This document shows, piece by piece, positions 30,101 through 57,406 of a DNA stretch of 57,406 nt. The translations under genes and the position numbers were made by a program. The stretch is taken from assembly GCA_021432655.1 (NCBI GenBank), contig MU271254.1, positions 62,001-119,406 on the forward strand, in the 5' to 3' direction. The notes under the pieces were generated by a model. It ran no database searches. It worked only from the letters and a program-made list of their open reading frames with translations, and had not been told where the DNA came from. Source of the DNA: Atractiella rhizophila (lineage: Eukaryota). Position 1 is the first letter of the stretch; each line of letters starts with the position of its first letter.

Positions 30101-30959
30101 ATGACTAACGATAGAGGACGGTCGACGTCTCCAAAGCCGGTAGGAAGGAATTCGCCGGATAGGAGAGGCAGGAGTATCTCGAGGAGTAGGTCCAGGTCAA
30201 GGTCCAGGTCCAGGAGTCCAAGTAGAAAGCGGGCATATTCTGCCAGTCGTAGTCGCTCCAGAAGCCGGTCGTATTCTCCTCGTTCGAAGAGGTAAGACAG
30301 AGGGATCTATGTGTCATATGAGGCTGAAGGTCGAATAGGTCGCGAAGCTTGAGTCGCTCAAGGTCCAGGTCCCGCTCCTTCACTCCACGCAGGAGGACTC
30401 GCTCTCTTTCACGATCGCGTTCTCGTTCACGATCACGCGAGCGCGGAAGTCCAATTATTGTGGTATCAAGGCTTACAAAGAACGTTACTCAAGACCATTT
30501 GCGAGAGATTTTTGGGAATTATGGAGACGTCTCTGACATTGACCTTCCCATCGTGCGGAAACGTGTGTATCTGTGTTCGTGGGTCGACAGACAAGCACTG
30601 ATTTGTGTGAAGTGGGAACTCATCGTGGTACGGCTTACATCACTTATGCCTCAGCGTCATCCGCAGCGAAAGCTGTCTCGCACATGGATCGTGGGCAGTT
30701 GGACGGTTCCTTGATTTCAGTGTCATTCAAGACAACGGACCCACCACCTAGGAGAAGGTATGGGAGGAGTCCTTCACCCGCTAGGAACAGGCCGTACGCG
30801 CGGAGGCCTTCCCGTTCGAAGTCTCCACCTATCCGCCGTAGTGGCGCTCAACGGAAGTCGCCCGATTATGGACCTCGAGGCCGCAGCCGGAGTGATGCTT
30901 CAATGAAAAGTGTTAGTAGCTACTCGAACCGCGGGAGGAGCAGGAGTAGGAGCCGCTAG
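30101..30959 (+). CDS. RNPS1: RS-rich RRM protein, RNPS1-like (copy B)
   Basis: Same exon structure as copy A, with a few amino-acid changes. Confidence 0.8.
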
Positions 30960-31063
30960 CCGAAGAGACAGTGTCAGCCTCAAACTTGTGACTCTACTCC
31001 AGTTTTTGTAACACAGTTTTAATCCTTCAAATTCATGCATGATCACTCTCAAAGTACAACACT

Positions 31064-32446
31064 TCATACAACCGGAACAACCGATCTAGAAGATCTGGTC
31101 AGCCGTGGCCCTCTGGTTCATCCGACTGACCTCGTGTCCCATACAACAAGACGTCCGTCCACCCCACTAGTACTGACCTGGGCAACAGCTTCCCTGGTTC
31201 CAGAGTAAAATTTCACGGCTGTAATCGTGTTCTGATGTGTCGTGGCCAATGCGGTCTCCTCAGGCGCAGCATACATATTAGCTCCTCTGCTGTCTGCGCT
31301 CTTGAACAGGTTGAAAGCTTCGTTGTTCAGCCTTCCAGCTGCAGCAGTACGCGCTCCACCACTCTTGGATTGGTTGACGTCCAAAGTCCCCGCCAAAGTC
31401 CAAGTGTAATTCGCGTCGGCTTGGAACAAATATGGCTGACAGTCATGACCAGCACCAACAAGAGACGTCTCTGTCACGAAAACAAGAGACAAGACGGGCA
31501 ATGAGTGTAGTTCGACCACTTGAACGCCACCACCAGCGTAAGCGATCGAGATGGTGGAGTCGTGACCTGGTGAAATGTTCAGTCAGCAGTTCCGCGGTTG
31601 AAGTGAAAGGCTACCAGTGAACGCAAGAGCTTCGCCACTGGGCGAGAAAGCTACCCCATGGACCCAACCGCCAGATGGGGTCGAATATTCCGCGCAAAGG
31701 GTATGGAAGGGCAATTTATCTCCCCAGTTTGTAGGAGCTGGCCTGTATGATGTCAACTACCACTCGTGCACACAAATGAGCAACAGACTTCTGATCTGAT
31801 CCTTTCAAGAAAGCGGAAAATACCCTCGCTTTCGAATCTGCGCTAGCAGTAGCGAGCAGGATCGAGTTGGGATGCCAATCCAAAGCTAACACGGTACTCC
31901 TGATAGGTTTCTTGATGTGCCTAGCGACCCACCAATCGTTTTCCGTATCGTACTGGCATACCGCTACGGTGCGGGCGCCCGAAGCGACTGCGAACTTCTC
32001 CTCGTTAGGAGACCACTGAACATAGGTAGCCGAGCGGTTGAGACGGAGCAAGACAAGGGATGGAGACCATTTTTGTTGGCCAGTAGCCGGGTCGACAACG
32101 GGATTCCAAACATAAGCATTTCGATCCTGGGAGCAAGTCACAATGCGATTGGTATGCGGAGCCCAGTCCACAGAGGTGATAAGTTTGTCATGCTGCGGGA
32201 CCGTTGATTAAATCGTGTCCAATCATTATGTGGCAGTACGCACTTCGGTTAAGGTATCGGCAAGAGTCCAACCGTTACCAGACTTTCTATGGATCTGCAA
32301 CTCATCTGAATTGCTGCTTATAGCGACCACTGTCCAGTCCGGTGAGCAAGTCCAGCGGCTGAGGATAACAGAAAATCGAACGCACTGGAACGATCGGCGT
32401 TGAACGCATGAGTCGTTAAAGGACTAAAGGAGAATTGGTGTTCCAT
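31064..32446 (-). CDS. ARPC1: Arp2/3 complex 41 kDa WD40 subunit (copy B)
   Basis: ORFs 31716-32171 and 31118-31519 are essentially identical to copy A. Confidence 0.94.
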
Positions 32447-32682
32447 GATGAGACGTTTCAATGGAGCGGATTAGCAATCTACACTCCTTATAAGCTCCTT
32501 TGGTTGAAGTGTTCGCAGCTAACTCGTGAGCGGACGGGACAGGGCGCTTCCGCTAGTCTTGTGCACGTACCTCTGGCGCCGTATGTTATCGACTTTGAAG
32601 CTTGAAAGACGCGGTGACGATAGGGAGGAGCTTAGAAGCGCTTCATAGACGAGCTGCTCAGCGTGCTCGCCGCTAATACAAG

Positions 32683-34915
32683 ATGGGGATTCAAGGCTTA
32701 TTGCCCATGCTCAAGGCATGCTCTTCCTAACCAGTGCATGGTATTTGACTGCCAAATAGGAAGCGCAAAATCCGGATCACGTTAAGAATTACAAAGGAAA
32801 GACTCTTGGAATTGATGCTTATGTCTGGCTTCACCGAGGAGCCTACGCATACGCCCAGTCGATAGCATTAGGCGAATCGAACACTCGGTACATTAACTAC
32901 GCCATTCACAGGATCCGCATGTTACAACACTACGGAGGTGAGTAACCTAGATTGAGCAGACGGACAAAGGTGATCAGACCACGTAGTGACGCCTTACGTT
33001 GTTTTTGATGGTGGACTCTTGTCGGCTAAGAAAGCTACTGAGAGCGATCGAGATCGGTCAGTCTTGGATGTTGCAGGGGTGCATTGCTAATTTTCGGACA
33101 GGCGGCGCAAAGAAGCACTCGCTGCCGGAAAGAAGGCACTCCAAGAGGGCAAAAAGAGCTTAGCACGAGACCATTTCATCAAAGCTGTAGACGTCACTCC
33201 TGCCATGGCTTTTCAACTTATCAAGGTGACAAAGTGCCTGCCCACACCTGATTAAGCCGACATTGATCTACAGGCGCTCCGTAAAGACAACATTCGATAC
33301 GTTGTGGCACCTTTCGAGGCTGATGGTAAGTGGCTCGTGCTGCAGGTTTATACACGTACAGATAGTAGGATTCAGCTCAGCTCGCCTTTCTGGAGAAGGA
33401 GGGATTGTGCGATGGAATCATTACGGAAGATTCGGACCTCCTCGTCTATGGATGCAATCTGGTACTATTCAAAATGGACAACTTCGGCAACTGTGTCTCA
33501 ATCGCTCGAGCAGACTTTGCACGATGTACCACAGTGGACATGCACAGCTGGTCAAACAAAGAGTTCAGGCATATGGCCATTCTTTCCGGTTGCGACTATC
33601 TTCCGTCAATAAAAGGGATAGGACTGAAAACTGCTGCGAAATTATTGAAAAAACATAGGACAGTGGAGCAGGTTAGTTGCTCCCTATCAAACGAAGTTCG
33701 CCCATTGATGAAGCCTCCAGATAATCGACTCACTTCATCGGCAGGGATTCGGAAATCTCATCCAGGACTATCTGCCGAAATTTCGACGAGCTGATTTTAC
33801 ATTTCTTCATCAGCGCGTTTTTGATCCTGCTTCGAAGAAACTCGTCCACCTCAATCCCTTACCACCACACATTGACGCTTCTTATCTGGAATACACTGGC
33901 AACGAGCTTCCACAAGACATCGCGCTTGCGATAGCCGTCGGAGATCTTGACCCGATCAATCTGAAGCCATTTATTGATTTTGAACGCGGCGACGGACAAA
34001 AGCATCAATCTAGTTCTAAAACACTATTGAGCTACTTTTCAAATATGGCAACCCCCAAAGTGACACGCCCTCGAGAAGGTACAAAACGCTTGAAGAAACT
34101 AGACGCTAACAGTCCTACTGGGCCTGTTGTTGCGTCTAATGCCCAGACAACAACTAGCAAATATTTCAAGACTCCCATTCCGCCTGGACGAAAACAAACA
34201 ATTCAAGCTACAGTAGTCCTGAACGCGACCGAAACTTCATTGATGAATACCGTTGTGGACAAAGCGACCGATGGACTGGAGAAAGAAGAGTCGAAATGGA
34301 TCCTAGAGGAGAGCGTGGAAAAGGAAACTGTAGCATTTGAGCAGGAGAATGCGCGTCTAGAAGAAGATCTCAGTGAGCGCGAAATATCTATCAGTCCGTT
34401 TCGTCCTCCACACCGCACGTCACCAGCAAATTCCGATAACATCACTGACCCTGATGTCTCATCACCTTCAACGCCAACAGCCAAGCGAAAACGAGCACAC
34501 CGGACTGTTAGTCCCACCGATTTCATTAACAGTCCCACTGCATCCCAGCCCTTGAAACGTCGCAAGATTCTGTGTGACGGCTCAGGCGAGACGTCTGCCG
34601 ACAACATTTCGTCCCCAATCCTCGAAGAACGATCTTCACTTGTTGACCAGTCACGAACTGCTGTAGCAAGAGGCTGGCGAGAAAAATTTATCGCTCCGAT
34701 GTCCTCCAAGGTACTTATGAACTGATCGGGAATACAGTGCAAGGGCTGACAGAATGTAGGTACGCAAGGTAGCTCTTCAACCAACAACGCAACTGGCCAC
34801 TCCAACTCTCAGTCGAATCAACAATAAGACGCGGAGGAACGACAGTACCATCAAGATGTCTACCCGTCCGATGGTCAGACCACTAGATCTGGAAATTTTT
34901 CGCCATCCTGCATGA
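32683..34915 (+). CDS. EXO1: Exonuclease 1 (XPG/FEN1 family), full length
   Basis: XPG-N and XPG-I motifs EADAQLAFLE, IITEDSDLLVYG, ILSGCDYLPSIKGIGLKTA and FLHQRVFDP; long disordered C-terminus. Confidence 0.94.
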
Positions 34916-40300: not shown

Positions 40301-41012
40301 GGTGAACGATCGGTTTCCGGCACTCTTCTTTGCGGACCTAGTCAAACATCGAATTGAAATCATGCCCAACCTGATCGAACACAAAACAAAGACAGAAACT
40401 GAGCAACGCAAAAAACCGATCAGACAAAGGACCAAGCTGGTAGATGCTCGAATTTCGCGCTCGAGGTTGGGTTTCGAAGGTGCCGTCCCTGATCACAACG
40501 CCCGCGGGGCCCTTCTCGCAGAAAGGGTACAAAATCAATTGAATCCCACCAAGAGTCCTCCTGCTGCCGAACCACTCGTCGAGACTCCCATCCAAACCGT
40601 GTCGTCACCGGTAGGTGTTGAACCGGATTCAACCCAGGATTCAACGCATCCCCCGACGGAAGAACGATCAAAGTCGAGTGACGAATCAAAGGTGGAGCCG
40701 TCTGAGGAGCCCATAAAAGATGACGATGCTGGTGCCGTTACCTCCAAAGAAGGTGGAAAAGATGAAGATCCACCCCTAGAACCTTTCACTCCGCCTACCA
40801 AAAAACCTACTATCAACACAACTACCCTGCTCAGACGAGAAAGCGACCGAAAGGGTAAACTGAAAGGACCAAGGCCCATCACGCCAACGGTGACAGCATC
40901 ACCGATGACATTTGACGGAGAACTCCCTTCAGGCAAAACGGCCAGGCGTAATTCTTTTAGTAGAACGGTGTCAGAGGAAGGCCCTGCAGTATCAACGGAG
41001 GCGACATCCTAA
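37340..41012 (+). CDS. F-BAR/FCH (plus DEP-like) RhoGAP, Rgd2/Rga8-like
   Basis: PSFANS/FWTTDYRRGLATLHTKL FCH start; LIERYKTGNFRP; ERRKVWIYEVPL...VVASALK...LLEMDPP GAP domain; many short introns. Confidence 0.82.
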
Positions 41013-42399
41013 AGCAAGCTCGGATACTCGTAGGTGGGTTATCTGACGGACCATACTTGTTTGATGACTTAATGATATTTGGGCTGCTCTAAATGTCATA
41101 AAATTGACTGTTGCTTTCAATGTTGGAATTGGAGTGCTCTGGATGTGGTTTGAAATGAATACTGCTTTCCATATTGGATGAGTGGCCATGTTCACCAGCA
41201 GCCTTTAACTGCTCCAGTCCGACAGTCTATTGATCGAATCGGAACAAGTGCTGAATCACAAGCGGTACATCTCGCAATTGTACATCAGAGTAAGCAGCTG
41301 CAAGGTATAAATGCCTCGTGATGATGATTGTCTGCAGTGCAATATTTTATCTCTTTCTACATCAAACAGCGGCAAGTCGTTCTTGCTCCAATTTGGCATA
41401 GAAAGCCTCTCGCTTCCTTACTGATAAATGGAGTCAGCGAAAGTACAAGAGGTACACAGGAGGGAGAACATACCTGCCGGAATGTGGTATCCATACCTGT
41501 TTTCTCTCATGGTCAGACACGCGAGACAAAATTTAACGATACGAACCAGTAAGCATATGCGGCGACTACCCCACTACCGATAGAGAAGGAAAGGTCGAAT
41601 ATAAGACGTTTCTAACAAAACAGGCAAGGTCACCACAGAAAAAGGCAACCTCGCACGCATACCTTGAGTTTTCCTGTCACCATATTCAGTAATCCAAAAG
41701 GAGTTGCAGAGCTGCAAAACATACCAGTGATTGGAGCGATGGGCATTGTAACTACTTCTTTCTTTCTCTTCGTGGTTTCTTGGGTGCCGGTGCTGTAACT
41801 TCGGTTCCGGTTCGGGTCCTATTGCTTCCGACCGCAATAGCTTGAAAGCTCGACCTCAACTCATTACATTGTGTTATTAACGGATGGATCGCTATGTAGG
41901 TCTTCAATTCTAATGCAAATTGACACGAGTCGGTTCCTCGACCTATAACCACCGCTTCCCTGGTCAATTCCGTCAGTGCTGCACTGAAGACAAGGACCAA
42001 AGAAGCCGACTGATGCTACTCCTGTCATGCCACCGCTTCTTCTGTTGTTGAATGCCCCTATCAACAGATGTGATTTCAGTTCCTAAACTAGCAGATTGAG
42101 ATGGGCATCATCATCGGATGCCTACAACACATCAGTCTGCCTACCTATTTATTGATAAAAGCTAGACACATGAATAAAGATATTGCTAGAAGAACATAAC
42201 AATCTTTGATACATATGTAGCTGAGTTTTTCTTCCATAGTTGATCAGCAGGCAACTGGTTGAATGCTCAGTTCAACAGTAACCTTCCTCTCTCCTGCTAT
42301 CAGCAACCTAGCAGAGAGATGGTCTATCCACATTCGAGCTCATTGTCTGCTGAATCAGAGGAGAACTGTCTTGATGTGCACAAGCGACCATATGCTTGA

Positions 42400-43018
42400 A
42401 GGCAGTGCTACATTATGTACAGTCGCTGGTGGTTGATGTGTCTGTAGTTGAGATGAACCTGAGTATGAAATATAACAAGATACTAACCTGTAGAGGAGAT
42501 GAACCTAAGAGAATACTCTAAGGTTATTATTTCATGATTTATATATAAGTGCAAGGCACTGCCATAAATTGTAAAGAGGGTTGCATAAAACATGGAGGAT
42601 GACTAAATCAAGTAATGGATATAATCAGGAATAAGTTATAAGGGGAGGAACAGCATGAAACGAGAACAAGAAAGATGCAAAGTGGTGCTGAATCTGCAGA
42701 GTGGCAAACTGCACTGGAGGATTCAGGGCAGCAAACTGCATAGGAGGATGTAAGGCAGCGAATAGCTCAGTGCTGACCAGCAAAATGGGAAGAAGGTCAC
42801 ATGACCCAGATGAGTGTCAGAGTTTGGCAGCGTTTTAAGCTACATTTGTGCCACTGTCATTTGTGGCTCTAGTTTTCTTTCCCCTTTGCCGTTTCTCTCA
42901 TTTTGCCGAGTTCCTCAAGGTATAAAACGCCCACTATAACTTCATTGTAATGTATTCCTTTAGACCCTTGGAATCAACAATGAGTACATTTCAGTAATTC
43001 GTGAGAGCAAGCCTGACA
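42400..43018 (-). mobile_element. Degenerate solo LTR of the gypsy family, interrupted by a 165-bp insertion
   Basis: Aligns with 52881-53299 and 43609-44013 (actaacctgtag...gagaatactct; end gcaagcctgaca). Left end eroded. Confidence 0.8.
42815..42979. mobile_element. 165-bp TG...CA element (short solo LTR) with ATGAG target-site duplication
   Basis: ATGAG|TGTCAGAG...AATCAACA|ATGAG. Removing it restores collinearity with the LTR at 43609-44013. TATAAAA near 42921. Confidence 0.85.
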
Positions 43019-43608
43019 ACACCCCCAAATTTCTAGCCAGAGCAGGTGAGTCAGGTGACTATTCTTTGTCTGGTCGATTTCATCATACACACACCCAACA
43101 TCTATCAAAAAACAGTTCTTTGATTTTGTGTTGGAAAACAATGATAGGAAGGTAAGTACAGCTTATTGGGACCTGAAGAAGGTGAAGGAGGCAACCTTCT
43201 GGCAATTCGCCGTATGTTGGAATGGAGAAGAAGTGATACTTCCGTATAATATCAAGCCCACTCTCTGATGTTGACTTTGTTTACATCCTCATTGACACTG
43301 GTACAGTACAAGCAGCATAGGATCTCATGAAGGGTTTAGAAATAAGTGCATGCTGCCACAGTTACATTTAGCGGAAATGGAGGCATTAACTCTGGCAATA
43401 GGTAGATAAAGTGACAATTGTTGATAAAGAAGCCATAAAACACAGCTTTCGGCCATATGAATTGATGCAGATGTATCTTACAAAGGAAGGAGCAAGAGAT
43501 ATTTTGGTTGACCTAAAAATGAAGCTTGTGAGAAGAGAGAAAATAAGGATTGGAAATGAAATGACATGCAGCAGATGAGAATTCAAGGACACAAAGATTT
43601 AAACATGG

Positions 43609-44013
43609 TGTTAGGGCTGACACTATGTACTGTCACAAACCAGTGATGTGTCTGTATTAGAGATAAACCTAAGAATATCATAACATGAAGTGACTAACCT
43701 GTAATGGGGATAAGCCAAAGAGAATACTCTAATGTCATCACCACTACATCACAATTTATATATATGTGTGTAAGGGCAACAAAGATATGCTAAGAAGAGC
43801 AATACAAAGGGATGTCAAGACAAAAACTGTGATGGTGCAGACTGGCGAATTCAATGGGATTTACTGAGCTCTGACCTGTACATTGAGACACAATGCGGCA
43901 GAGAGTGTGGCAGGTGCAAAGTGGTGCTTGGTAAGAGCATGAACTTGTGAAGTAGGAAAGTAGGTCATGTGACCTAACTTAGTGCATTTCAGTAATGTGT
44001 GGGAAGCCTGACA
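43609..44013 (-). mobile_element. Solo LTR of the gypsy family (405 bp)
   Basis: TGTTAGGGCTGACAC...AGCCTGACA termini; 5-bp TSD CATGG/CGTGG (4 of 5 match). Confidence 0.9.
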
Positions 44014-44781
44014 CGTGGTAGCAAAGGACCCTGAGGTAGGAGTAGTGAGAATGCTGTCAGACTATGTGACACCTATTACTTTTATCTTGCCTTTCTTATC
44101 AAAAGATCAATATTCATTCGCTGGTATGTCTGTCGCCAAATTCATTGTATATGACTGGAAGATGTAAGTTGGTGACAAGTAGCTTAATGCAGCGAAATAT
44201 CATTATTTTTAACCCAGACAACAAGAAGCATACTCTCATGCTACAGCAGATATCAAATTTGGATAAATTGGATCTAGAATTGGGTATCATTAAATCTCAG
44301 GCTAATCCACACATTCCCTCCACTGTGACAAGCATAGGAACACAGCATTGCAGCAATTGTATAGGGATAAACCTAACAGCACTGGTCAAAGGGGCAAAGA
44401 AGAAAGTGGACGCTGATATCGATCCTTAAGCATGCAATATACTGCTGGACAAGTTGGTACAGTGTTTGCACATATTGCCATAGTTCTCACAAAAGGTGTA
44501 TGGACCTTTTCTTGGAACACTTGAGAGAGTTTTCTGTGCTCATTGTAATGTCAACATCTTTCTATCATAAACGTATAAGCAGTGGGAAGAAATGTCCATT
44601 GGCACCTATGGAGAGCAGATACACTGTGGATGTCTTTTCTAGGAAAGAGGTGTGATGTAAAACAATAAGAAACAGTAATAAATTGGGATAAAGCAATGAC
44701 TTACTGGTAATTTCCGGAAAAGATACAGGATTGGAGAACATGAAATATCCACATGCCATGGAGGAGAATACAGGAATCAGA

Positions 44782-45040
44782 TGTCAGGGCTGACATTCTG
44801 TAAGTAGAGGCTGCCAAGTAGAGTGGATATCCTGGGTATTATTATAATGATAGAAGAGAGATACTAACCTGCCAAGTAGAGTGGATATCACAAGAGTATT
44901 TATATACAGACAGCCACAAGTCCAGAATGTTCCAGCATATTCCACTGTTAACTCTATTTGCCACATGCCCAACAGAACCTTTTAGACCATTTGTTATATA
45001 TTCCAGAACATGAGTCATGCTTCAGAAGTGAACCCTAACA
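44782..45040 (-). mobile_element. Solo LTR of a second family (259 bp)
   Basis: TGTCAGGGCTGACA...CCCTAACA with perfect TSD TCAGA. It shares only the terminal ~14 bp with the main gypsy LTR. Confidence 0.9.
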
Positions 45041-45154
45041 TCAGAAACCTCTTTCAACTGGGATATCCACCTGTTTTTAACTGGAATAAGGTGCATTCAA
45101 GATTATCGGGCTGTCTAAATTAGCGCTGTTTGTACAATATACATATCACTTGTA

Positions 45155-45220
45155 TGTACAGGAAGTGAATTGTTTATGTACAGGAAGTGAATTGTTTATG
45201 TACAGGAAGTGAATTGTTTA
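45155..45220. repeat. 22-bp tandem repeat x3 (TGTACAGGAAGTGAATTGTTTA)
   Basis: Three exact copies. Confidence 0.92.
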
Positions 45221-45563
45221 AATTGAGCTCATGAGCTCAAACAATAACAAAACTATAAAGGAATGGCATATCTCAGTTGGACCTGGACAAGAATCATTCA
45301 TACTCTCACCCATACTATCCTCTGAACTATGCTCCTTCTCCTGGACCTCAACCTCATCATCCATCCGATTGACAGCTCATGGGTTCCCATTCCCTCGAAT
45401 GCGCGATACCATTGTTTTAGTCCTTGTCATTGCTCCTTATGTGGTATAGGCATCCTTTGTTGTTGTCATTCCATCACTGCCATTAGTGAAGGTGTTTGTG
45501 TTAGGGCTGACACTGCCTGTCAAAGCAGCGAAAAAGAAAGCCAAGGGCGACAATGACTCTTAG

Positions 45564-46279
45564 GTGTGCGACTTTTCTGCTGGGCATGTCGCAACTGCGT
45601 TCGGTCGCGTCTGCTCGCGCTGTCACAGTTCTCGCAAAAGGTGTGAGGTTTTGCCCTTGGGGTATCTGTGAGAGCTTTCGATGTTAGTCATAATGTCAAC
45701 TACGTTCCATCCTAAACGTGTTGGCGACGGGAAAAAACGACCTTCGGCTTTGGTCGAGAGCAACTACGAGAATATTTCGGACGGCGACGAGGAATCTCCC
45801 GCACAATCGATGTTGAGCGCCGCTCAGTTGTACTCTGAAGCATTTAGCCTGGATTTTGCGCAAACTATGCTCGCAGCCGCTAGGTTAAATGCACAAGCGG
45901 CGGCGGAGGCTCTCAAGGCCACCGAATTGCAAATGGAGTTGTACAAGAGGAGGCAGGATGATCGTGCCGCTGAGGATGGGGCTAGCGAGGGTTCTGTGGT
46001 GGAAGGTATGATCGCTGACGTGACCGGTAGGGTAAGTTCATCCATTTTTCGGCGATCTGTCTGACTATCTAGATGTTGTTTAGGCATCGTAGGGCACCTG
46101 ACCCATCGCCAGCTGCAGAAAATGTGTCGTATCGGCGAAATTGAGTTTCGACTGGGCGACTTAAACCCTTCGTTGGCCCAAGAGGCCTATGATAATTCCA
46201 ATTATGATGCATATTCTGTTTCTTCTTCGAGCAGTAGCGATAGTGAGGAGTCCGTCCAGAGTGGTGGTTTTGATCTCTG
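45564..46279 (+). pseudogene. Antisense accessory ORF in the retroelement 3' region (Cys cluster plus coiled-coil-like segment), probably spliced
   Basis: VCDF...CSRCHSSRKRCE is in frame with ORF 45681-46064 across one TGA (45669). Candidate intron 46006-46083 opens a 65-codon second exon ending at TGA 46279. Confidence 0.5.
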
Positions 46280-49200
46280 AAATGTATGCGTTTTGCGTCT
46301 CCGTATTAGCGGCGAATTGCCGGGCGGCGACAGATGTAAATTTGTCGTAGTGGCAAAAGAACGCGTAGTGAGTGGGGAGAACAATGGCAAGGAGGGTGAT
46401 ACAGGACTCACACTCCCCTGTCTAGGGGAGGACCCTCAGGCGTTCCTCCCACTAGCTACCCAAGCTTATTTTGGAGCTCGCAACCAAACAGGCCTGGGCC
46501 ACGCGCTCGTGGACACAACGCGCAGTATAACGGGTCGGCGATTTGCGTGCTCGTCGCCGGTCTGCCTTCTTCGTGGAAGAATGTGTTGTCGAGCGAACAA
46601 GCATGGGGAAGCAAAGGTAAAAGCAAAAAATAGGAAACAATAATCATCAAAACCAGAACAGAGTGTAGGATGAGGGGAAGCAGTTGTGTACCTCACAATT
46701 GAGGGATTTTTGAAGTTTGACCGGTATTGTTTTGGTGCAGTAAGCAACTGTTCGTGGAAATGGGGCGAGTAACTCACCGACAAACCGGTCGCCGATCTGT
46801 CCATTGAGGAACAGACCGGCGCCTCGCCTAGACCTATGTTCAACAATGTGACTAGGGATTCACCCAGCGAGGCGTGTAGAGGAGTAGGACCTCTTAAAGT
46901 GAGGGGGAGGGGACCTCGCGATTGAGGATAATTTTCGTAAATGCGACATTGGTGATGGTGCGAGAACGCAATGAGCATTCGTCTTTGACGGGCGACGAAT
47001 GGACTCACCGACGACCAAGTCACCGACTTGTCCGTTGAGCAACAAGTCGGCACCTTGCCTTGACCTAAGTATCAAAGACTAGGATTTCACCCGGCAAGGC
47101 ATATAGGGGTGTTGGACCCCTTAAAGTGAGGAAGACCCTTCAGCATGTTTTCGTCGAAGGTTACGAAAACGCGCATTTGGGCGATTTTTGGCGGAGTTCG
47201 GTATGGAATCGGGACGAACTGCGAGAGGGTGTGCAGTGTGATAGTCTTTTACGGCATCCTGTGAGTTTTCGAGATCCGTGATGTTGATCCACTCGTCCTC
47301 AGATGGTGAATACCCTTTGTATCCAACGCGATATTTGAAAACTCTATTTCGGGTACCGAACCATTTCCTGTCAACAATTTTTTCTACTTCCCATTCCTCA
47401 ATTCCATTCACCAATTCTGGAGGTGGTTTGGGCAACTGGACTCTGCCAGGGATGTCGTCTTCGTTGACTTTTCGTATTAGGCCCACATGGAACACTGGAT
47501 GTATCTTCCAGAGGATGGCAACTCGAGTTTAAGGTTGAGGGGACCCAAAACTTGCAAAACGCGAAAAGGGCCATGCCATTTGTCGTCCAACTTTTTGACA
47601 GGTCTCGTCGATTTGATGTTTTTCGCGCTCAACCAGACGAAATCGCCGACATGATATTCGGGCGCCGGTGCGCGTTTTCTGTCATAATGTTTTGCCATGA
47701 GATCTGCTGCTTGCTCGAGTGCCGCTTGTGCTTCCCGGTCGGCGATTTGCATCTTTTCGACGAATTGTGCCGCCGCGGGAACGTCCTCGTCGGAGATGGG
47801 TTCAAAGGCCATGCGTGGATGTTGACCACAGTCGAGCGAAAATGGAGTTACGCCCGTCGCCGAACTGACGCGATTGTTGAGTGCAAATTCTGCATTGGGG
47901 AGTCCTTCCACCCAATTATCCTGAAGGTGGTTGCAGAAAATGCGCAAATATTGTTCAACCTCTTGGTTCATACGTTCAGTTTGACCATCAGTCTGCGGGT
48001 GATAGGCTGTCGATGGTGAACCTTTGATACCTAATAGGCGAAAAAGTGCAGATGTGAATTTGGACACGAATTCTTTGCCTCGATCGAAAATTGCGACATC
48101 AAAAAGTCCATGTAACTTCCATACGTGATCGCGAAAAAGTCTTGCAAGGCCTTCTGCATCCATCGTCGAATGGGTGGGGATGAGATGGGTGCGTTTTGAG
48201 AGTCTGTCTACTATGACGAAAATTGTGTCAAAACCCCCCAGATTCTGGGAGTGGTCCAACCAAGTCCATGCTGACAATTTGCCAGCGACGTGTGGAATGT
48301 TATTTGGTTGCAAAAACCCGACAGGTGGGGAAGGAAAGTTTTTCGTTCTGTGGCAAGTGTGACAGGCGCCGACATAGCGGCGAACGTAATGCGCTAAACC
48401 TGGCCACCAATAGTACCTTTTTTACTAGAGCTGTTGTCGATTTTACGCCTGGATGACCGGCGATTTGCGAATCGTGCAGGTCTTGCAAAATCGAGCGGCG
48501 AATTTCGTCGTCTTGGGAATGTAGAGTTTTCCACGAAAATAGACAGCGCCATCGACTTCTTGCCACTCCCGTCGGCGAATTGCATCGACTGGTTCGTCTA
48601 GGATTTCTCTCAAGGCTTTGACTACTTGTTCTTCCCGTTCAGGTACCTTTTTCACACGTTCCAGTATACTCAACTCCGACATTTGTCTAGTGAGCGCAAC
48701 CGCGCTCCAGTCGCGTTGATCGTGATACGATCCGTGTTGAAAAACGTTCTGGGAGTAATACTACGTCAAAGTTGTCGCAAGTCGCCGGTTTGTGATCCGG
48801 TCGCCGACTGAGCGCATCTGGTTTTGCGGAGTTCCGCCCAGGACGGTGTAAAAGTGTGAAGTTGAAGGATGCAAGTTCGGTGATCCAGCGTGCCTGTCGG
48901 CGATTCAACTTCTGCGGCATTCTGAAATACTCGAGGTTTTTTGTGATCGGTCAGGATCAGAAATGGCTCATCAGTACCTTGTAGAAGGTGTCTCCATTCT
49001 TGCAGTCCCCGCATAATCGCGAGCATTTCTTTGTCGTAGGTGTCATAGTTCCTCTGGGCAGCGTCGAGCGATTTTGATACGAAACCGAGAGGATGAAACT
49101 TCCCATCTGGTTTCATTTGTGACAAAATGGCCCCTGTCGCGAAATTTGATGCATCGACTTCGAGCAAAAATCGTCCTATTTGTTCGGGATGTGCCAAAAC

Positions 49201-50564
49201 GAGCGCCGAAGTCATGAGCTGCTTTAAAGCGGCGAACGAACGTCGTTCGTCTACCCCCCAGACCCAGGAAATCTCCTTTTTGGTCAGTTCGTATAAAGGT
49301 CTTGCAATGTGACTAATTCTGTCGCAAAAACGGCAATAGAAATTAGCGAAACCAAGGAACATTTGGACTTCCTTCATGTTTTTTGGTTCCGGCCAATCCA
49401 TCACTCCTGCAACCTTTACTGGATCCGGTTCGATCCCTCTGCTGGTAATGATCAATCCTAGATACTCTACTTCACTTTGACACCAGACACATTTCTGTAA
49501 GTTAACATAAAGCCCATTTTCGCGCAAAATTTGACAAACTTGTCGAACGTGTTCCCAGTGTTCTTCTTCAGTTTCTGTCGCAATTAGGAAGTCGTCTATG
49601 TATATGAAGATGAACGCGGCGGCGATCATAGCGCGGAAAATAGAGTTCAGGAAAGCTTGGAAAGTCGCCGGTGAGTTGCAGAGTCCGAAATACATTACCA
49701 ATGGTTCGAAAAGTCCTCAATTTGTGCGAAACGCAGATTTGTGTTCGTCTCCCTCTTTGATACGGACGTTGTTGAACCCTTTCCTCAGATCAATCTTGCT
49801 GAAAAACTTCTTACCAGAAACCATGGAAAAGAGGTCAGCTTGAATGGGGAGTGGGGTCTTGTCTTTGACTGTGGCTTCGTTCAGCTTTCGATAATCGAAA
49901 AGGGGACGAAGTTCGGAGGAGTCTTTTTTGTGCGTGAAAAAAACAGAAGCTCCATGTTCACCTGTGCTAGGACGTATACGACCGGCGCTTAGTTCGGCGT
50001 CAATGAATTGGTCGAGCGCCGCTTGTTCGTCTCTTTTCAAGGGGTAGACCGGGCCCGCATATGGTCGTGATTCGGGTATGAGGTTGATCACGTGATCCCA
50101 AGGACGTCGGGGAGGAAGAGAAGTTTTGAACTTTTCGTCGTCGAAAATGTCCGCAAAATCGGCGATTTGCGTTGGTATTTCGACGACATTTTTTGGTCTC
50201 ATCGCCGCTGCGTCTTTTGCCAGTTTCTGCGATTTTGTCATAGCGGCTCGTATCGAGGTCGACGATGGCGGGAAGTGTTCGCGAGTGGTAGACACGTCAT
50301 CTGCATTGCAACTGGTAGGGCAACGAGAGAACTCAACTTTCCCTGAGTCCCAGTTGATCTCTGGGTTATGGTGTCTTAGCCAGTCATGGCCCAGAATCAT
50401 GTCGACAGTCCCTAAGTCTGCTACAGCGAATTGCCAAACCTCGTGGTGAGCGGCGATCGAAATGGGCAAGTAAGTGGCAGAATGGATGGATCCACCTTGA
50501 TTAAGAGATCCGTCGATGTTATAAACAGGTACTGGGGAAGGAAGTTGAGTGACAGGTAGGTTGT

Positions 50565-51171
50565 TGTCAGGTTTGGATCTTACGCAAATCGGCGCCCGTT
50601 CGCCGGATTGCGTCTCCTATCGCCCCATTTGCGTTCCGTGCGAATCGGCGCCCGTCGCCACTGCGTCTCCCGTCGCCACTGCGTCTCCCGTCGCCACTGC
50701 GTCTCCGTCGTCACTGCGTCTCCCGTCGCCACTACTCGGTCACTGCGTCTCCCGTCGCCACTGCGTCTCCCGTCGCCACACTGCGTCTCCCGTCGCCACT
50801 GCGTCTCCGTCGCCACTCGCGTCTCCCGTCGCCTATTTGCACGCAGTGCAAATCGGCGCCCGTTCGCCCATTTGCGCCTACATCACCACTTAGCCCAATT
50901 GTGCCTATCCTCCTCTTATTAACTCCGCGTAATCCCACTGTCACTTCCCCTTCTAGTTCTCTTACATGTTTCATCTGCTCTCCTCTACGCTCTGTGGCAG
51001 TGTTATTCCGCTTGTATATTATAGATCAGAGAGTAGTGGAGGTGACCTCAGAGTATTCTCTTAGGTTTATCTCCACTACAGGTTAGTCTTCATGTCATAT
51101 CATGCTCTTAGGTTTATCTCCACTACAGACGCATCGCCCGTCGGCGACCGCACATAGTGTCAGCCCTAACA
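50565..51171 (+). mobile_element. Solo LTR of the same gypsy family (607 bp), inserted in inverted orientation in the protease ORF
   Basis: GTTGT|TGTCAGG...AGCCCTAACA|GTTGT perfect TSD. Excision restores ...VSAYN-LPVTQLPSPVPVYNIDGS in frame. Confidence 0.95.
50650..50833. repeat. ~18-bp GC-rich minisatellite (CCCGTCGCCACTGCGTCT)n in the LTR U3
   Basis: About 9-10 variable units, bracketed by the direct repeat GCAAATCGGCGCCCGTTCGCC. Confidence 0.9.
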
Positions 51172-51486
51172 GTTGTATGCAGAAACGAGTTTTGGAGAAA
51201 TAAAAGAAGTAGTTGCGCCGCTGTCAACGAGCGCCGACGTGGCGTGCCGGCGATGGGAATGTGGATGGTGGAATGCGGTTCTGAGCTTCGTCTTCGAACT
51301 GACAAGAGATGCTGTTGTCGAGCGTAAGTGGACTTTGTCGTACATTTTTGCGACTTCTGCGCATCTTTGCCTCCAGGAGGGAAAACGCAATTTCGGGAAT
51401 GGGGAGTCTTGTTCAGATGGGGGGAATACTATGCTGGGCGGCATCTTGTTGGAAGTGATTTTTGATGACGTAAATGAATTGCAAGT

Positions 51487-51531
51487 CGGCGATGGGGACA
51501 CTTCTTCCACCCACCGCCGTCCTAAAAATCC
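51487..51531 (-). promoter_or_regulatory. Putative -1 ribosomal frameshift signal at the gag/pol junction
   Basis: G GAT TTT TAG at the gag end; pol is in the -1 frame; 10-bp stem CGGCGGTGGG/CCCATCGCCG 5 nt downstream. Confidence 0.75.
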
Positions 51532-52839
51532 TCCTCAAGATCTTTTGATTGGGTAACACTCGTTTTCGGTGACTGGTCGGCGAATTGTCCAATTTGTCGT
51601 TCTTGGTGCATCATTTTTGAATCAAAATATTCCCCTTGAGCTCGGAGATATTGCTCTTTGTTCATAGTCGTTCTACATTCTCTCTCCCGATGTCCTATCT
51701 TTTTGGCATCGTCTGCAACGGGGAGGTCTAGATTTTGTCGCATCGACTTCCATGTCATCGGGGTCCTTGGCTCTATGAGCGTGTATAGCGGCGTTTGGTG
51801 ACGGATTGGCGACCGGTGACAAAGTGGCGCTCGGTCGATACGGTACGGATGTTCTGCTCTCTCTGTGCTTTGATGATTTTGAGCTGTCTCTCTTGGCAGA
51901 AAACGTATTTTGGGATCCATCTTTTGCCGATAGGATGTTTCGAAAGAAGGTTGAATGAGCAGATTCTTCAGCGTCAATTCGCCGAGATTTTTCTTTCCAG
52001 TCTTCCAGCGATTTTGGGAACTCTCCTTGGGTTACTTTGAGATGTAGGGCAGGATTGAGTCCTCGTTTGAAGAAAAAATGAGGGCTTCATCATCAAAGTC
52101 AGCTTGATTTGCCAATTCTTCAAACTTGATGGTGTAGGTTTCTAGGTTACCTTTTTGCTGGAGGGAAGATATTTTTGTCTGTGCAATGAGCTTGTGGTCT
52201 GTCTTGCAGAAACGCGCTCTGAACTCTGACAAAAATTGTTCCCACGAAATTCGTTCCTCGTTTTCAACAAGTCGGCGCAAAATCCCAGCGGCGAATTTTT
52301 CCGCATCTCCTTCTTTCATGTAAGAAAGGGTAAATAGGATTTTCGATTTTTCGGTCGGGAATTGGCCTGGAACGGTAGAGGTGTAGACGTAAATTTCACG
52401 TAAAAATGTCGGAGCTGTTTTAGGCGCTCCTTTGAAGATTGAAGGTGGAGCGAGCTTGATACCTGCATACGGTGCTACTTGGGCAGTCTGGGATATAGCT
52501 GGAGGAGAATAAGTTTGAGGTATTGGGTCTGTTCGCGATAAGAAAGGAGAGGTGGTTCCACTGTCTCTAGGAGGGGGCAGTCTGGAGTCCAATAATTGCA
52601 AAATTCGGTCGTTTGTGTTTTGGACGTGGACGTCGAACCTCAGTTGCGCAATTTCGTTCGCATTCTGGGAGGTTTGCACATTTTGTTGGTTGAAGCTCGT
52701 TATGAGGTCTTGTTCGAGTTTTTTTGAATTGCTTTTCAGTTGTGAGGTGTAGAGTTTGGAACATCCTTTCTAGGTGCTGGATGCGTTCTTCGCTCGTCGG
52801 CGGTTCGCGCGTTTCCATATCTCCCCAAACCTCCGACAT
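51522..52839 (-). pseudogene. Gypsy gag (frameshifted in this sequence)
   Basis: KLAPPSIFKG...FPTEKSKILFTLSYMKEGDAEKFA...WEQFLSEFRARF (retrotransposon gag), with a remnant zinc knuckle near the C-terminus; ends EEDF-stop. Confidence 0.88.
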
Positions 52840-52868
52840 TTTTTAAGTTTGGTTTTGAAAATAAGGGG

Positions 52869-52878
52869 AGAGTATTCT
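52869..52878 (-). promoter_or_regulatory. Self-priming primer-binding site (AGAATACTCT)
   Basis: 2 nt inside the 5' LTR end; exactly complementary to LTR 53004-52995, which lies about 27 nt downstream of TATATATA. Confidence 0.75.
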
Positions 52879-52880
52879 TC

Positions 52881-53299
52881 TGTTAGGGCTGACACTATGT
52901 GCGGTCGCCGACGGGCAACGCGTCTGTAGTGGAGGTAAACCTAAGAGAATAGCATGGCATGAGGAGACTAACCTGTAGTGGAGGTAAACCTAAGAGAATA
53001 CTCTGAGGTCACCACCACTACATCTCGATGTATATATACATATGTAAGGGCACTGCCATAAACTGTAACATACGTTTCTTGAAACATGTAAGATAGCTAG
53101 ATCAGGAAAGCAACAAAGGGAATACTCGGAAATAAGGCATACTGAGCAGTACAAGTGAGAAAGGACAATAAAGTAATAATAGAGACGGTGCAGACCGGCG
53201 AAATGTGCAAGGTTTGCTGAGCGGCGATTCGTGTGAGATAGGGAAAGCGGCGATCAGCGCGAACGTGAGCAAAGCGGCGATGGGGAGGCACGTGACCTG
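52881..53299 (-). mobile_element. 5' LTR of the gypsy element (outer ~40 bp of U3 missing)
   Basis: Same U5/R as 50565-51171; TATA at 53031-53038. Confidence 0.9.
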
Positions 53300-53691
53300 T
53301 GGTGGAGATAAACCTAAAGAGAATACTCCAAGGTCATCGCCACTACATCTTGGTTTATATAATGTGTAGGGTATTATTAGCATGAAATATAAAGTATGTT
53401 GTATGAAACATGTGTCATAGCTAAATCAGGAAGGTAATAAAGGAAATAGTTAGAAGTAAGTTATGGAAAGAGGAATAATATGAAAGGATGGTAAGATGAA
53501 ACAACAGTAATGTAGACCAGCAAAATGAACGGGTGTACTGAGCGGTGAACTGCATGTGAAGACACAAAGCGGCAAAGAGTATGGGAAGGGGCAAAGTGGT
53601 GAGTGATAAAAGCACTGATTAGTGAATTAGGAAAGCAAGTCACATGACCTGAACAAAAGCATTTTGGTAATGTGTAGGAGCAAGCCTATCA
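53295..53691 (-). mobile_element. Older partial LTR of the same family (R/U3 only), fused to the 5' LTR
   Basis: acctgtggtggagataaacctaaagagaatactcc...gagcaagcctatca aligns to the other copies. Confidence 0.8.
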
Positions 53692-53899
53692 TCAGAATGG
53701 AACAAGATGTAATAGGCCACTGAAATTGGAGAAGCAACTCAGTTGAATGCTCCTTTAAAAGATGGGCCATCCAGATATTGATGAGCAGGATGTGGAGGAG
53801 CTCTATCAATGGTACTATGGATCAGCTAGAGTAGATAAGGATGCAGGTGGTGAGATCAACTGTTTAGGTATGCATTTCCTCTGTATTGATATTTTTATT

Positions 53900-55230
53900 T
53901 CTGTTTCAAGGTAAGTGTTACCTCGCTTCAGCTGAGAAAGATTCCCTAAAAGCTTTCAATCTTTTCAAAAAAGCTTGAATAACTTGTTAATGTTTTAATA
54001 TATTGCAAGACATATGACTAGATAGGCTGAGATTGCAAGCCCGCCTAAGCTTGTACAAAAACTTGAGAAACTTGCTGACCTGCGAGCAGAGGGTTTGAAA
54101 GCTGCATAAACTCACATGCCAATTTTAACTGCCCTCTGTATGAGGGCTATCAGCCGTGCCCATACTGCAATAAGCCTCTTTATGACAGTGTTGGGGGGCT
54201 AACAAAGGACTGGAAATATTTCCACTTATTGCACACCTTTGAGCTATTACAGGGAATACAGACATAGGGAAACCATCAAGTCCTGTCATAAGAGCAATGG
54301 CTTGCTTTCTCATTCCTGGCCTAAAAGCTCTAAAGGATATTGATTAGTTCCTTCATCCTCTTTATGAGGAAGCAATTGAGATGGTATAAGGATTTCCCTC
54401 CAGTCCTCAGAGACAAAAACTGAATTCATTCAGCGTACATACTTCATCTTTGTATTAGCCACAGACAAGCCACTAAGAAATTGATGAACATGAAAGGCTT
54501 AAATGAAATTCTGTGCTGCTGCACTTGTGAAGCTTGAGGGATCTACATGGCAGAACCTACTACTGCCCTCGTCAACCACTGTGAATATCCCTACAACTTG
54601 AAACTAAGGACCTGTCCCAAAAACAAAGCATTAGATCCTCCCATTATGAAGCGACCAAACCTTTCACTTACAGGCAAGGGAAGGAGGCAGCTTAAGAACC
54701 TTTGAAGTAGTCTCTAAGGCTCGCAGGATCAATAGAAATTGCATTTGGTTGAAAATTCCATGAATTTTTTCCTTAACCCCGCTTCACATTTTATGTGCCT
54801 TGCCATCAAAACATGATTAAGAATTTAGTCATATTCTGAAGAGGGAATGTAAGGAGTTTGATAAGAAAGAAAGAGTAGGTATGTGATTTCAAAGAAGGAT
54901 TGGCAGGTAATGGGAAAGAAATCAAAGAGGCAGCCGAGATGACTCTATCCCCAGTTGAAATGCGCTTCCGCAAACTTGATAATGACCACTTAAACCTCAC
55001 AGCCGAGGATTTCTCAAATTTGTAATTTTCTTACTACCAGCATTTCTTGGATTGGGGAAAGGTCATTGTCTCTTGTGTCCAGTACTCGATGGCAAAGGAG
55101 GATCGATCTTATGGATCGAGGGAGCAATCTGTAAATTGGGTGGAGAAAGAACTTTACCACCAGTACAGGTACAGCCATCTTTCCAACTGCCCCAGCCTTG
55201 TTTACTCTGTCCTTTATATTCCTGACTATC
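53900..55230 (+). mobile_element. Decayed CACTA/CMC-EnSpm (Tnp2/Transposase_21-like) transposase
   Basis: Remnants CPYCNKPLYD, FLIPGLKALKDID*FLHPLYEE, KLMNMKGLN..CCTC and LYHQYRYSHLSNCPSLVYSVLYIPD, with many stops. Confidence 0.7.
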
Positions 55231-55438
55231 TGTTAGTTGTAGTGTGTTGTTTTGGTCATCTGCCTGTTATGACTCGTATGAGTCATCACTATACCTATAG
55301 TTTAGTTCTGCCTAGGAGTGTTGGTGCTCATTATTGACCACCAACCACTCCCCAGGTATGTGTCTCTATACTTCTCTAATATCTCATTATTGACCACCAA
55401 CCACTCCTAGCCTTAGATCCTTACATGGTAGCAAGAGC
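55231..55438 (+). mobile_element. 5' LTR (55231-55425) plus tRNA-type PBS of a copia-like element A
   Basis: TGTTAG...CCTTACA followed directly by TGGTAGCAAGAGC. Sequence similarity to the LTR at 55534-55738. Confidence 0.72.
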
Positions 55439-55533
55439 TGGTGGCTAAGATTACATTTGGTCACACCTATCACCTAACCCCTCCTCCAGACCACAATTTT
55501 CACCCTCCCACACTCAAATTTGAGAGAATCTGA

Positions 55534-55738
55534 TGCTGGATGGAGCTAGGGGACAGAGATTGGTGGTCAAAGATGATGACATTGATAGGAAAACACATAC
55601 CTAGGGGACAGAGATTGGTGGTCCAGGATGATGACCGCCTAAACTGCCCCCTAGGGGGCTAAAACTCCGAAGTGAAGCAAACAACACTGAGGTGGCTGAC
55701 CATACAAATATAACAGAAATATAACACCTAATCCAACA
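55534..55738 (-). mobile_element. 3' LTR of copia element B (205 bp)
   Basis: Minus strand: purine tract AGGTGGGAG, then TGTTGG...CCAGCA; lies downstream of the RNase H ORF. Confidence 0.8.
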
Positions 55739-55965
55739 CTCCCACCTGGGCAGCCGCCTCTTGAAGCTCCCACTAAATCCGAGAACCATCCAGAATAACC
55801 ATCCAATGAATCTCCCACCGAATGAAGGCATCATGAAGTGACATCGCACAAAGAAAACATATTAGTTAAATGTCTAAAACCAGTAGAGAGATCCTCGTAC
55901 CGCTTAAAGCGGCGTCTTATAACCCCTAGAAGGAGGACAGAGTTTTATTGTGCCCCATAACTGCC

Positions 55966-57406
55966 TCATACACTTGGGTAGGGGCGCAGACCCATCATTT
56001 CTCGGAATTTTGCAACGCCAGCAACTGGGAAGGCCTTGGTGAGGAGGTCTGCAGGCATAGACTCGCCAGGGCAGAAGGCTGGGGTGATGAGTCCAGATTT
56101 CTACTGTGTCCCTGAGCCAGTAGAAGCGAAGATCCAAGTGCTTCATGCGTCCATGGTGCTCAGGATTCTTGCTGACTTGCAAAGTGCTGTTGCTGTCCGT
56201 ATAAAGTGTTGTCGAACCTTTTGGAGCGAAGCCAATCTCTTGCAGAAGACTTCTGAGCCAAACCACCTCTTGTCCTGCTGATACCCCTGAGATGTACTCA
56301 GCCTCCGTGGTTGAGAGTGCCACAAGAGACTGCAACTTGCTACTCCAGCTCACTGCTCCTCCTCCGACAGAGGTATCCTCCAGTAGACCGGCCAGTATCC
56401 TTGCAACCCGCAAAGTCCGCATCACAATATGCCTTGAATGGTTGAGAGATATCAAAATCTGAGGCAGAGTACTCGATGCACATGTCCTGAGTGCCCTTGA
56501 GATAGCGCATGAGGTGTTTGGCAGCTTCCCAGTGCCTCTTGCCAGGATTGGACAGGAATTTTCCGGGACAGAGACAGTGTGTGCAATGTCAGGGCGTGTA
56601 GCAACTGCAAGGTACATGAGAGAGCCGACGACATGGCTGTAGGAAATGGTTCGCATCTGTTCTTCATCTTCCTTGGTCTGAGGACAGTCTTGCCTCGATA
56701 AACCGTGGCCAACACTGAGGGGAGTGAGCACAGGCTTGCAGCTATCCATCTTCTGTCGAAAGAGAAGGTCCTTAACGTATTGCTCCTGATCCAACCACAT
56801 CTTCTTCTGCTTCCTATCCCGCCTAATCCTCACTCCAAGCAAAAATTCCGTCGCTCCAAGGTCCCTCAGCTTGAATCTCTTTCCTAACTCCTTCTTGAAC
56901 TCCTCCACAGCGCGTCTGGACGTGCTTGCAATCGTTATATCGTCCACAAAGACTGGGACAATCACCTTGACTTCACCATTCGAGTAGATCCAGAGACTGC
57001 TGTCACACTTGACTTTGGTGAAGCCCATGGACACGAGCTCCCTGTCCAGTTTCTTCTGCCATTGACGTCCTCCTTGCCTGGTGCCATAGATTGCTTTGAG
57101 GAGTTTGAGAGCGTATTCTGGAGGACCTTGAGGGTGACCTTCTGGCTGCTTGGCATAGACTTCAGCGTCCATTTCTCCGTTCAAAAACGCAGTTGAGATG
57201 TCCACTGATTCCAGTTCCATGTCCAGGACACAGGCAAGCGAAAGAATGGTTCTGAGAGTGGCCCATTTGACTGTGGAAGCAAAGGTGTCGAAGAAGTCAA
57301 AGCCAGGACGTTGAGAGAAGCCCTTGATGACGAATCTAGCCTTATAACGCTCAATTGAGCCATCAGACTTCTTCTTGATAGCAAACACCCATCTGGATCC
57401 AATGAC
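55966..57406 (-). pseudogene. Ty1/copia pol 3' part (RT plus RNase H), frameshifted, runs off the window
   Basis: RYKARFVIKGFSQ, VDISTAFLNG, KAIYGTRQ, FVDD, TRPDIA, VALSTTEAEY, KHLDLRFYW and ADLLTK (shifted frame). Confidence 0.95.

Follow-up and report, generated by a model that had tools for sequence, protein, structure and literature searches.

Retrotransposons of the Ty3/gypsy and Ty1/copia superfamilies occur in the window of Atractiella rhizophila DNA analysed here (57,406 nucleotides (nt) of contig MU271254.1, assembly GCA_021432655.1, positions 62,001 to 119,406 of the forward strand), and their long terminal repeats (LTRs) carry a short direct repeat, X, whose two copies enclose a spacer. 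This X-spacer-X pattern is real and specific to LTRs, and chance is excluded as its source. On the LTR sense strand, the upstream copy (X1) forms the end of a candidate exon, the downstream copy (X2) forms the 3′ end of a candidate intron, and the stretch between them is the spacer. The elements are ordinary Ty3/gypsy (Tf1-like, self-primed) and Ty1/copia retrotransposons, and the LTR feature is probably a new variant of architecture. It is proposed, tentatively and at slightly less than even confidence, that the unit is a self-regenerating LTR mini-intron, rebuilt by strand transfer onto X2.

The X-spacer-X unit and its splice-like signals

In the original prediction, seven LTR sites were read as X-AG/GT(T/A)(A/T)GT...X-AG on the LTR sense strand, and all seven sites fit this formula when extracted (Table 1). 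X is exact over 24 nt in LTR A, 28 nt in LTR B, and 21 nt in LTR2; it matches at 33/35 positions, with 23 nt exact, in copia B, and in copia A it extends over 25 nt followed by a one-base indel ahead of the AG. In the decayed old copies, the last 21 nt of X agree at 16/21 (LTR C, 43652) and 18/21 positions (LTR D, 42442). The donor hexamer is GTTAGT in five units and GTATGT in two, the acceptor is CAG in five and TAG in two, and the candidate introns measure 46-58 nt. The distance from the end of X2 to the LTR end is 43 nt in the gypsy LTRs, 29 nt in LTR2, 15 nt in copia A, and 25 nt in copia B, which places the unit in the 3′ region of the LTR, the part that contains R and U5 in every LTR element. 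All complete copies (7/7), across both superfamilies, retain the unit.

The specificity of the pattern was assessed by a scan of both strands of the entire window for exact direct repeats of at least 14 nt at a spacing of 30-90 nt. The yield comprised five LTR X pairs and two tandem arrays (50641-50835 and 45153-45220) and nothing else, with zero such pairs in the first 44.8 kb; an arithmetic estimate of the chance expectation in the window is ~0.01. The spacers (20-37 nt) are family-specific and, within the window, confined to LTRs. Contigs from four DNA runs were placed on 42000-57406 at 80% likeness, and single LTR positions are covered by 13-48 of them, so the LTR families are multi-copy.

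It is very improbable that the signals belong to the opposite strand or arise by coincidence. The reverse complement of GTTAGT is the branch consensus ACTAAC, followed by CTGTAG, and on the antisense strand of the gypsy LTRs ACTAACCTGTAG can be read as a branch site plus acceptor. However, the copia donor GTATGT becomes ACATAC, which is no branch site, and an antisense donor, GTAAAC, occurs in copy B alone, the other copies (A, C, D, and E) having GATAAAC or similar; coincidence is contradicted by the window-wide scan. Two modes of intron gain were also rejected. The tandem duplication described by Rogers does not fit, as the sequences after X2 (ACGC.., CCTC.., CCTT.., and CTCC..) are unlike the spacer start; the earlier statement that the unit differs from this type of intron gain, the 5′ half of the intron not being repeated downstream of X2, is thus borne out. 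An introner, or another inserted element with a target-site duplication, does not fit either, since the spacers differ by family, are found only in LTRs in the window, and the "duplication" has no constant length (21-35 nt).

With regard to the number of lineages, X had been described as unrelated among the gypsy, second-family, and copia LTRs. The separation of gypsy from copia stands, but that of the second family does not: LTR2 aligns with the gypsy LTRs and has their termini TGTCAGCCCTRACA and part of X in common with them, so the independent lineages are probably two (gypsy and copia) rather than three.

The LTR units look host-like as candidate spliceosomal introns. A host reference is provided by the HMG-CoA synthase gene (8789-10416, minus strand), for which a protein-guided model with five introns rebuilds exactly the 452-aa Atractiella rhizophila protein at NCBI; the other close matches of this open reading frame (ORF) are all from basidiomycetes, and the window is accordingly assigned to that species or to one very closely related, within the basidiomycete subphylum Pucciniomycotina. 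Its introns measure 66, 51, 50, 52, and 53 nt, with the donors GTAAGT, GTACGC, GTACGC, GTCAGT, and GTTCGT (GTNNGY in 5/5), the acceptors CAG (four) and AAG (one), and the branch-like motifs TTGAC, TTAAC, TTGAG or CTGAG. An ORF-joining scan over the host part of the window (41.9 kb) placed GTTAGT third among donor classes by fraction (3/14, vs 36/1121 for all GTNNGN), its three candidates being 44-49 nt long. The claim that donors and lengths match those of host introns therefore holds: GTTAGT and GTATGT fit GTNNGY, and 46-58 nt compares with 50-66 nt for verified introns and 44-49 nt for the candidates. The LTR acceptors CAG and TAG are of the YAG type. Copia X2 contains a branch-like ATTGAC or TTTGAC 17-22 nt from the AG, resembling host TTGAC, and the best such motif of LTR2 is CTCTAC. 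No skip of 46-58 nt at the intron was found among the 15 of 129 joints and 12 of 127 indels listed for the DNA contigs, which weighs neither way.

Inferred transcript start, concerted change, and the proposed cycle

Judged from its sequence, the gypsy family is self-primed in a Tf1-type layout. The segment AGAATACTCT, located 2 nt after the gypsy 5′ LTR (LTR B), is complementary to AGAGTATTCT, the first 10 nt of predicted exon 1, and this 10-nt self-complementarity was matched by 0/5000 shuffles. The sequence past LTR B reads GAAGAATAC, without a tRNA-type TGG primer-binding site, and the predicted 5′ end of the RNA pairs with AGAATACTCT in spliced and unspliced folds alike. According to the available text of PMC5341516, Tf1 and Tf2 are self-primed, and reverse transcriptase (RT) cuts the primer from the RNA 5′ end and copies U5 and R. 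Because the primer is the RNA 5′ end in this layout, the point at which gypsy transcription begins can be located: the primer start is preceded, at 34-35 nt, by a TATA box (TATATATA at 34 nt in LTR B), and the predicted exon 1 comprises 32 nt, that is, an 11-nt primer and a 21-nt X core. In both A and B, X1 equals X2 at 21/21 positions from exon nt 12 onward, the part left after removal of the 11-nt primer, and at 9/15 positions further left. A TATA-like run precedes X1 of copia A at a distance of 31-37 nt.

The conservation of these parts was profiled as mean pairwise identity among LTRs A, B, C, and D. The primer (66/66) and the donor hexamer (36/36) are identical throughout, followed by the X2 core (0.87), the X1 core (0.83), the U5 part (0.74), the stretch from TATA box to start (0.62), and the spacer interior (0.50). 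With an invariant donor beside a freely drifting interior, the profile looks like that of an intron. The ATGs count in favour of splicing as well: the spacers of A, B, and C contain two each, those of B are the only ones ahead of the gag ATG in the unspliced leader, and the predicted spliced leader has none, so that splicing would clear it. In addition, X1 and X2 change together. The gypsy copies A and B share ~80% identity across 261 nt (spacer interior, 0.64) and differ at one X site, where the change is mirrored in X1 and X2 (TTTATC vs TTTACC); copy D has a private variant, TTC (TTCATC), in X1 and X2 alike. The LTRs of copia A and copia B share 73% identity, and several substitutions and a 3-nt indel separate their X sequences, yet inside either element the two X copies are almost the same. 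The two positions at which X1 and X2 of copia B disagree are peculiar to that copy, the X2 state being found in 24/24 (55624) and 23/24 (55626) DNA-run contigs, and the family consensus is therefore X1 = X2 over 35 nt. For paralogous repeats to remain identical as their orthologues diverge, one must be copied repeatedly onto the other, and such co-variation is what rewriting of X2 from X1 in each cycle predicts.

The proposed cycle is as follows. Each LTR would hold a promoter-proximal spliceosomal mini-intron of 46-58 nt whose last 21-35 nt (X2) duplicate the whole of exon 1 (X1), which would be R. Transcription would begin at X1, ~34 nt past the TATA box, and splicing of the leader would remove the spacer and its upstream ATGs, so that minus-strand strong-stop DNA would consist of the X complement joined to U5. 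The 3′ LTR copy in the RNA would retain the intron; the strong-stop DNA would anneal to X2 and be extended through the spacer, X1, and U3. X1-spacer-X2 would thereby be rebuilt, and X2 overwritten with the X1 sequence, in every generation. If the RNA ended slightly past X2, the strong-stop DNA would match X2 and the start of U5, and X2 would be preferred over X1. Where the family primes itself, rewriting should affect the sequence from the end of the primer onward, which roughly matches what is observed. Indirect support for this cycle comes from the architecture, from signals resembling those of the host, from the location of X1 at the inferred start, and from the joint variation of X1 and X2; splicing, retention of the intron in the 3′ copy, the site of polyadenylation, and the role of X2 as acceptor are what we infer from these sequence features.

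The unspliced 3′ copy is the weakest step of the cycle. Short introns of fungi are recognised by intron definition, so the 3′ LTR copy should splice like the 5′ copy unless the RNA is cleaved ahead of the acceptor, and nothing recognisable as a poly(A) signal was found to back such cleavage. The AT-rich run in the LTR2 spacer was considered as a poly(A) signal and set aside, as it likewise resembles the TATA-like run before X1. Several further points weigh against the cycle. The exact identity of X enters the predicted primer by 3 nt in A and 7 nt in B, which puts the boundary near, not at, the predicted RNase H cut. In LTR2, 17 nt separate the sole TATA-like run from X1 downstream of it, a distance too short for X1 to make up the whole of exon 1. 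The concerted evolution of the gypsy copies rests on two sites; the copia A and B spacers have their first 8 nt in common (GTATGTGT) and are then loosely similar, with moderate homology. The caveat raised at the outset that the gypsy branch points are weak also stands, the motif being CTTAG, 18 nt from the AG, near-consensus when set against host TTGAC, TTAAC, and TTGAG.

An unlikely, though by no means negligible, alternative is that the intron is real and is kept in the manner of retroviruses, spliced RNA being translated and unspliced RNA packaged and copied, with X a relic (a partial tandem duplication around AG/GT) or a sequence with another role. It requires only known biology. A division between translated spliced RNA and packaged unspliced RNA fits the spacer ATGs, and separate pools of spliced and unspliced RNA are described for retroviruses and BARE in the available text of PMC3735527. 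This account leaves unexplained why X1 and X2 stay equal despite diverging orthologues and why, in both superfamilies, the repeat of exon 1 stops precisely at the acceptor. Were X a neutral relic, its identity should have fallen to that of the spacer interior (0.50) instead of standing at 0.83-0.87.

The concerted change of X could also arise without splicing, which is judged just as unlikely as the retrovirus-like account. Here, X-spacer-X would be a direct repeat in R that is homogenised by template switching of RT, the repeat being deleted in the leader and the product transferred onto X2, while GTWWGT would bind U1 snRNP, act in the control of 3′-end formation, or be idle. Deletion between direct repeats during retroviral reverse transcription is well known; it would yield a DNA outcome identical to that of splicing and could by itself homogenise X, which must be counted against the proposed cycle. 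The weak gypsy branch sites and an exon 1 of merely ~32 nt agree with template switching as well. It does not account for the gypsy donor being invariant in 4/4 copies (36/36), for a different consensus donor in both copia LTRs, always right after X1, or for the agreement of length and acceptors with verified host introns. Moreover, slippage should yield LTRs with one X or three, and there are none among the complete LTRs (0/7).

The self-regenerating mini-intron would extend to both superfamilies if the self-primed Ty3/gypsy and the putatively tRNA-primed Ty1/copia elements had converged on R as exon 1, its repetition at the 3′ end of the intron, and a spliced leader that regenerates the intron. 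This wider claim is more doubtful than the cycle itself, and it is advanced with reserve.

Elements and neighbouring features

The gypsy element lies on the minus strand, where Pfam domains follow in the order PF03732 (gag), PF00078 (RT), PF17919/PF17917 (RNase H), PF00665 (integrase), and PF24626. The gag region spans 52032-52769, and RT, RNase H, and integrase with a Tf2-type SH3 domain occupy 47477-50616; PF24626 (SH3_Tf2-1) scores 37.6 bits in the integrase (cut-off 30). No 3′ boundary or 3′ LTR could be assigned to the element. The site of solo LTR A is empty in other copies, as shown by a bridging joint (50559>51172) that skips 612 nt, in 3, 2, and 1 contigs of the DNA runs labelled X1, X2, and X3, respectively. 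The assignment to Ty1/copia follows from PF07727 (E = 6.7e-52) and from short LTRs of the form TGTTA...CA (195 and 206 bp). Directly 3′ of the copia A LTR, TGGTAGCAAGAGC is found, a candidate primer-binding site that may resemble the usual initiator tRNA-Met site TGGTATCAGAGC.

Table 1. Coordinates in the window of the LTR elements, their candidate introns, and associated sites
Feature	Position	Strand	Description
LTR A, solo, gypsy family 1	50565..51171	+	607 bp; inside pol region of the gypsy element; from flank analysis
Target-site duplication of LTR A	50560-64 and 51172-76		GTTGT
Predicted exon 1, LTR A	51050..51081	+	self-primer AGAGTATTCTC (51050-60) and 21-nt X core
Candidate intron A	51082..51128	+	47 nt, GTTAGT...CAG; X1 51058-81, X2 51105-28; spacer with two ATGs
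LTR B, gypsy 5′ LTR	52881..53296	-	U3 start missing; fused to LTR E
Predicted exon 1, LTR B	52973..53004	-	self-primer 52994-53004 and X1 52973-53000
Candidate intron B	52924..52972	-	49 nt; X2 52924-51
Primer-binding site AGAATACTCT	52869..52878	-	2 nt past end of LTR B
Gypsy internal region	47477..52842	-	broken by stops or frameshifts and by solo LTR A
LTR E, eighth and diverged copy	53297..53691	-	ends right after X1-CAG; abuts GTCACGTG of LTR B
LTR C, old solo	43609..44013	-	target-site duplication CATGG / CGTGG; candidate intron 43652-43698 (47 nt)
LTR D, older than LTR C, decayed	42410..43020	-	ends approximate; candidate intron 42442-42487 (46 nt)
LTR2, distant relative of gypsy LTRs	44782..45512	-	candidate intron 44811-44868 (58 nt); X1 44869-89, X2 44811-31
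Copia A 5′ LTR	55231..55425	+	195 bp; candidate intron 55356-55410; X1 55327-55, X2 55383-410; TGGTAGCAAGAGC next at 55426-38
Copia B 3′ LTR	55521..55726	-	206 bp; candidate intron 55546-55600; X1 55601-35, X2 55546-80; joints and loose ends at 55521 in DNA contigs
Copia B pol (RVT_2)	55904..57406	-	truncated by window end

LTR E meets LTR B at 53296/53297 on the minus strand, at the X1 donor, and the junction reads ..CCACCACAG/GTCACGTGCC.. there. Loose ends of DNA-run contigs give GGAG/GTCACG as the intact counterpart of the B side, so the junction lies on a shared AGGT. A deletion through microhomology, template switching by RT, and an event resembling splicing are all conceivable origins. 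A splicing fossil from the X1 donor (CCACCACAG joined to GTCACGTG) was considered and not retained, as GAG is a poor acceptor and a microhomology deletion at AGGT fits equally.

Both tandem arrays of the repeat scan are situated in U3. That of LTR A consists of about ten 18-nt units CACTGCGTCTCCCGTCGC, and DNA-run joints across it skip 144-244 nt, which indicates that the unit number varies among genomic copies. That of LTR2 consists of three exact 22-nt units plus two extra bases (TATGTACAGGAAGTGAATTGTT). The ends of gypsy-type LTRs (e.g., 44782-44795 and 52881-52894) form a near-palindrome, TGTCAGCCCTGACA or TGTCAGCCCTAACA, and in the fold of the spliced leader the CCTAAC of this near-palindrome pairs with the TTAGG that opens the X core.

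An ORF of 130 codons (45672-46064, plus strand), opposite to the gypsy strand, has no Pfam match, and a decayed second copy of it (44476-44603) lies on the far side of LTR2. The old transposon copies (42000-45500 and 53300-55200) have a G+C content of 0.41-0.43, vs 0.47-0.52 elsewhere, and differ from younger ones mostly by transitions (28:18 and 35:18 against LTR B); differences in the DNA runs are likewise chiefly C>T, G>A, A>G, and T>C. These biases suggest decay of the repeats of a deamination type. In the host region, a tandem segmental duplication of ~3.5 kb (26308-29872 and 29873-33384, 97.9% identical) has doubled a WD40-repeat gene and neighbouring ORFs.

Significance and relation to known systems

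A sense-strand intron should be lost from a retroelement, whose genome goes through a processed-RNA stage. If the cycle is correct, a self-regenerating intron borne by a retroelement would allow intron-dependent expression without intron loss, and it would represent a new replication strategy, a clear convergence of gypsy and copia elements, and a natural system for the coupling of splicing, 3′-end formation, and strand transfer. Even without splicing, a homogenised repeat in R calls for an explanation, and X-AG/GT..X-AG near the LTR 3′ end offers a simple signature for the scanning of fungal genomes. In basidiomycetes, many genes need an intron for mRNA accumulation according to the accessible part of PMC3744415, and a dependence of basidiomycetes on introns for mRNA accumulation is likewise stated in that of PMC5851062, a point in favour of the proposed cycle.

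Searches for relatives gave little. The 20-nt LTR-end pattern and the pol protein had no match and no relative, respectively, in a viral contig collection; a degenerate LTR-end pattern was found at 8 metagenome-contig loci, none of them LTR-like or with an X repeat (L003 and L007 have just an unrelated GC-rich repeat); and an Rfam scan of 41000-57406 at gathering thresholds gave 0 matches. The original prediction knew of no description of such a system, and the literature search agrees, having yielded no LTR mini-intron with an exon-end repeat; most subscription journals lay outside its scope, and absence from print is not established.

Several known systems have parts of the arrangement. The disputed lariat model of Ty1 is a relative in concept. 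That model is touched on in the available text of PMC1266399. Introns inside LTRs have been reported in maize, as the first such evidence to the knowledge of those authors (bioRxiv 10.64898/2026.05.08.723830); these introns average 1303 bp and belong to long LTRs and non-coding RNAs, and the maize account, in its accessible portion, contains no exon-end repeat or regeneration, unlike the present units. In Cryptococcus, poorly spliced transposon transcripts feed RNAi (PMC5851062, summarising Dumesic 2013, available text). As here, the transposon RNAs are those of a basidiomycete and have introns whose splicing efficiency affects their fate, but the introns are not placed in LTRs in that part of PMC5851062.

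The LTR units nonetheless differ from each of the following as well, and the human T-cell leukaemia virus type 1 (HTLV-1) and foamy viruses are the viral case. These have their major splice donor in R, and thus in both LTR copies of the RNA, with the acceptor far downstream and the unspliced RNA as genome; in the present elements, the LTR encloses the entire candidate intron together with its acceptor, and the exon is repeated in the 3′ part of that intron. In the model of Rogers, a segment with AGGT is duplicated, the exon-end repeat with AG makes the acceptor, and splicing restores a single copy. The LTR units are alike in that an exon-end repeat closing in AG supplies the candidate acceptor, and unlike in that X1 and X2 change together rather than diverge from each other. 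In spliced integrated L1 elements (SpIREs) and other retrocopies, a spliced leader is copied and the intron lost, whereas 7/7 complete LTRs retain the candidate intron here, and the repeat offers a route for its rebuilding. There is also a likeness in layout with Tf1 and Tf2 of fission yeast, which were reportedly shown by Levin in 1995 to be self-primed Ty3/gypsy elements. The gypsy family has in common with them a 5′ RNA end complementary to a site 2 nt past the LTR, the order gag-RT-RNase H-integrase, and a Tf2-type SH3 domain in the integrase. We know of no description of an intron or an R-like repeat in Tf1 or Tf2 LTRs; the gypsy family of Atractiella rhizophila differs from them in having a GT-AG unit of 46-49 nt between the self-primer exon and U5.

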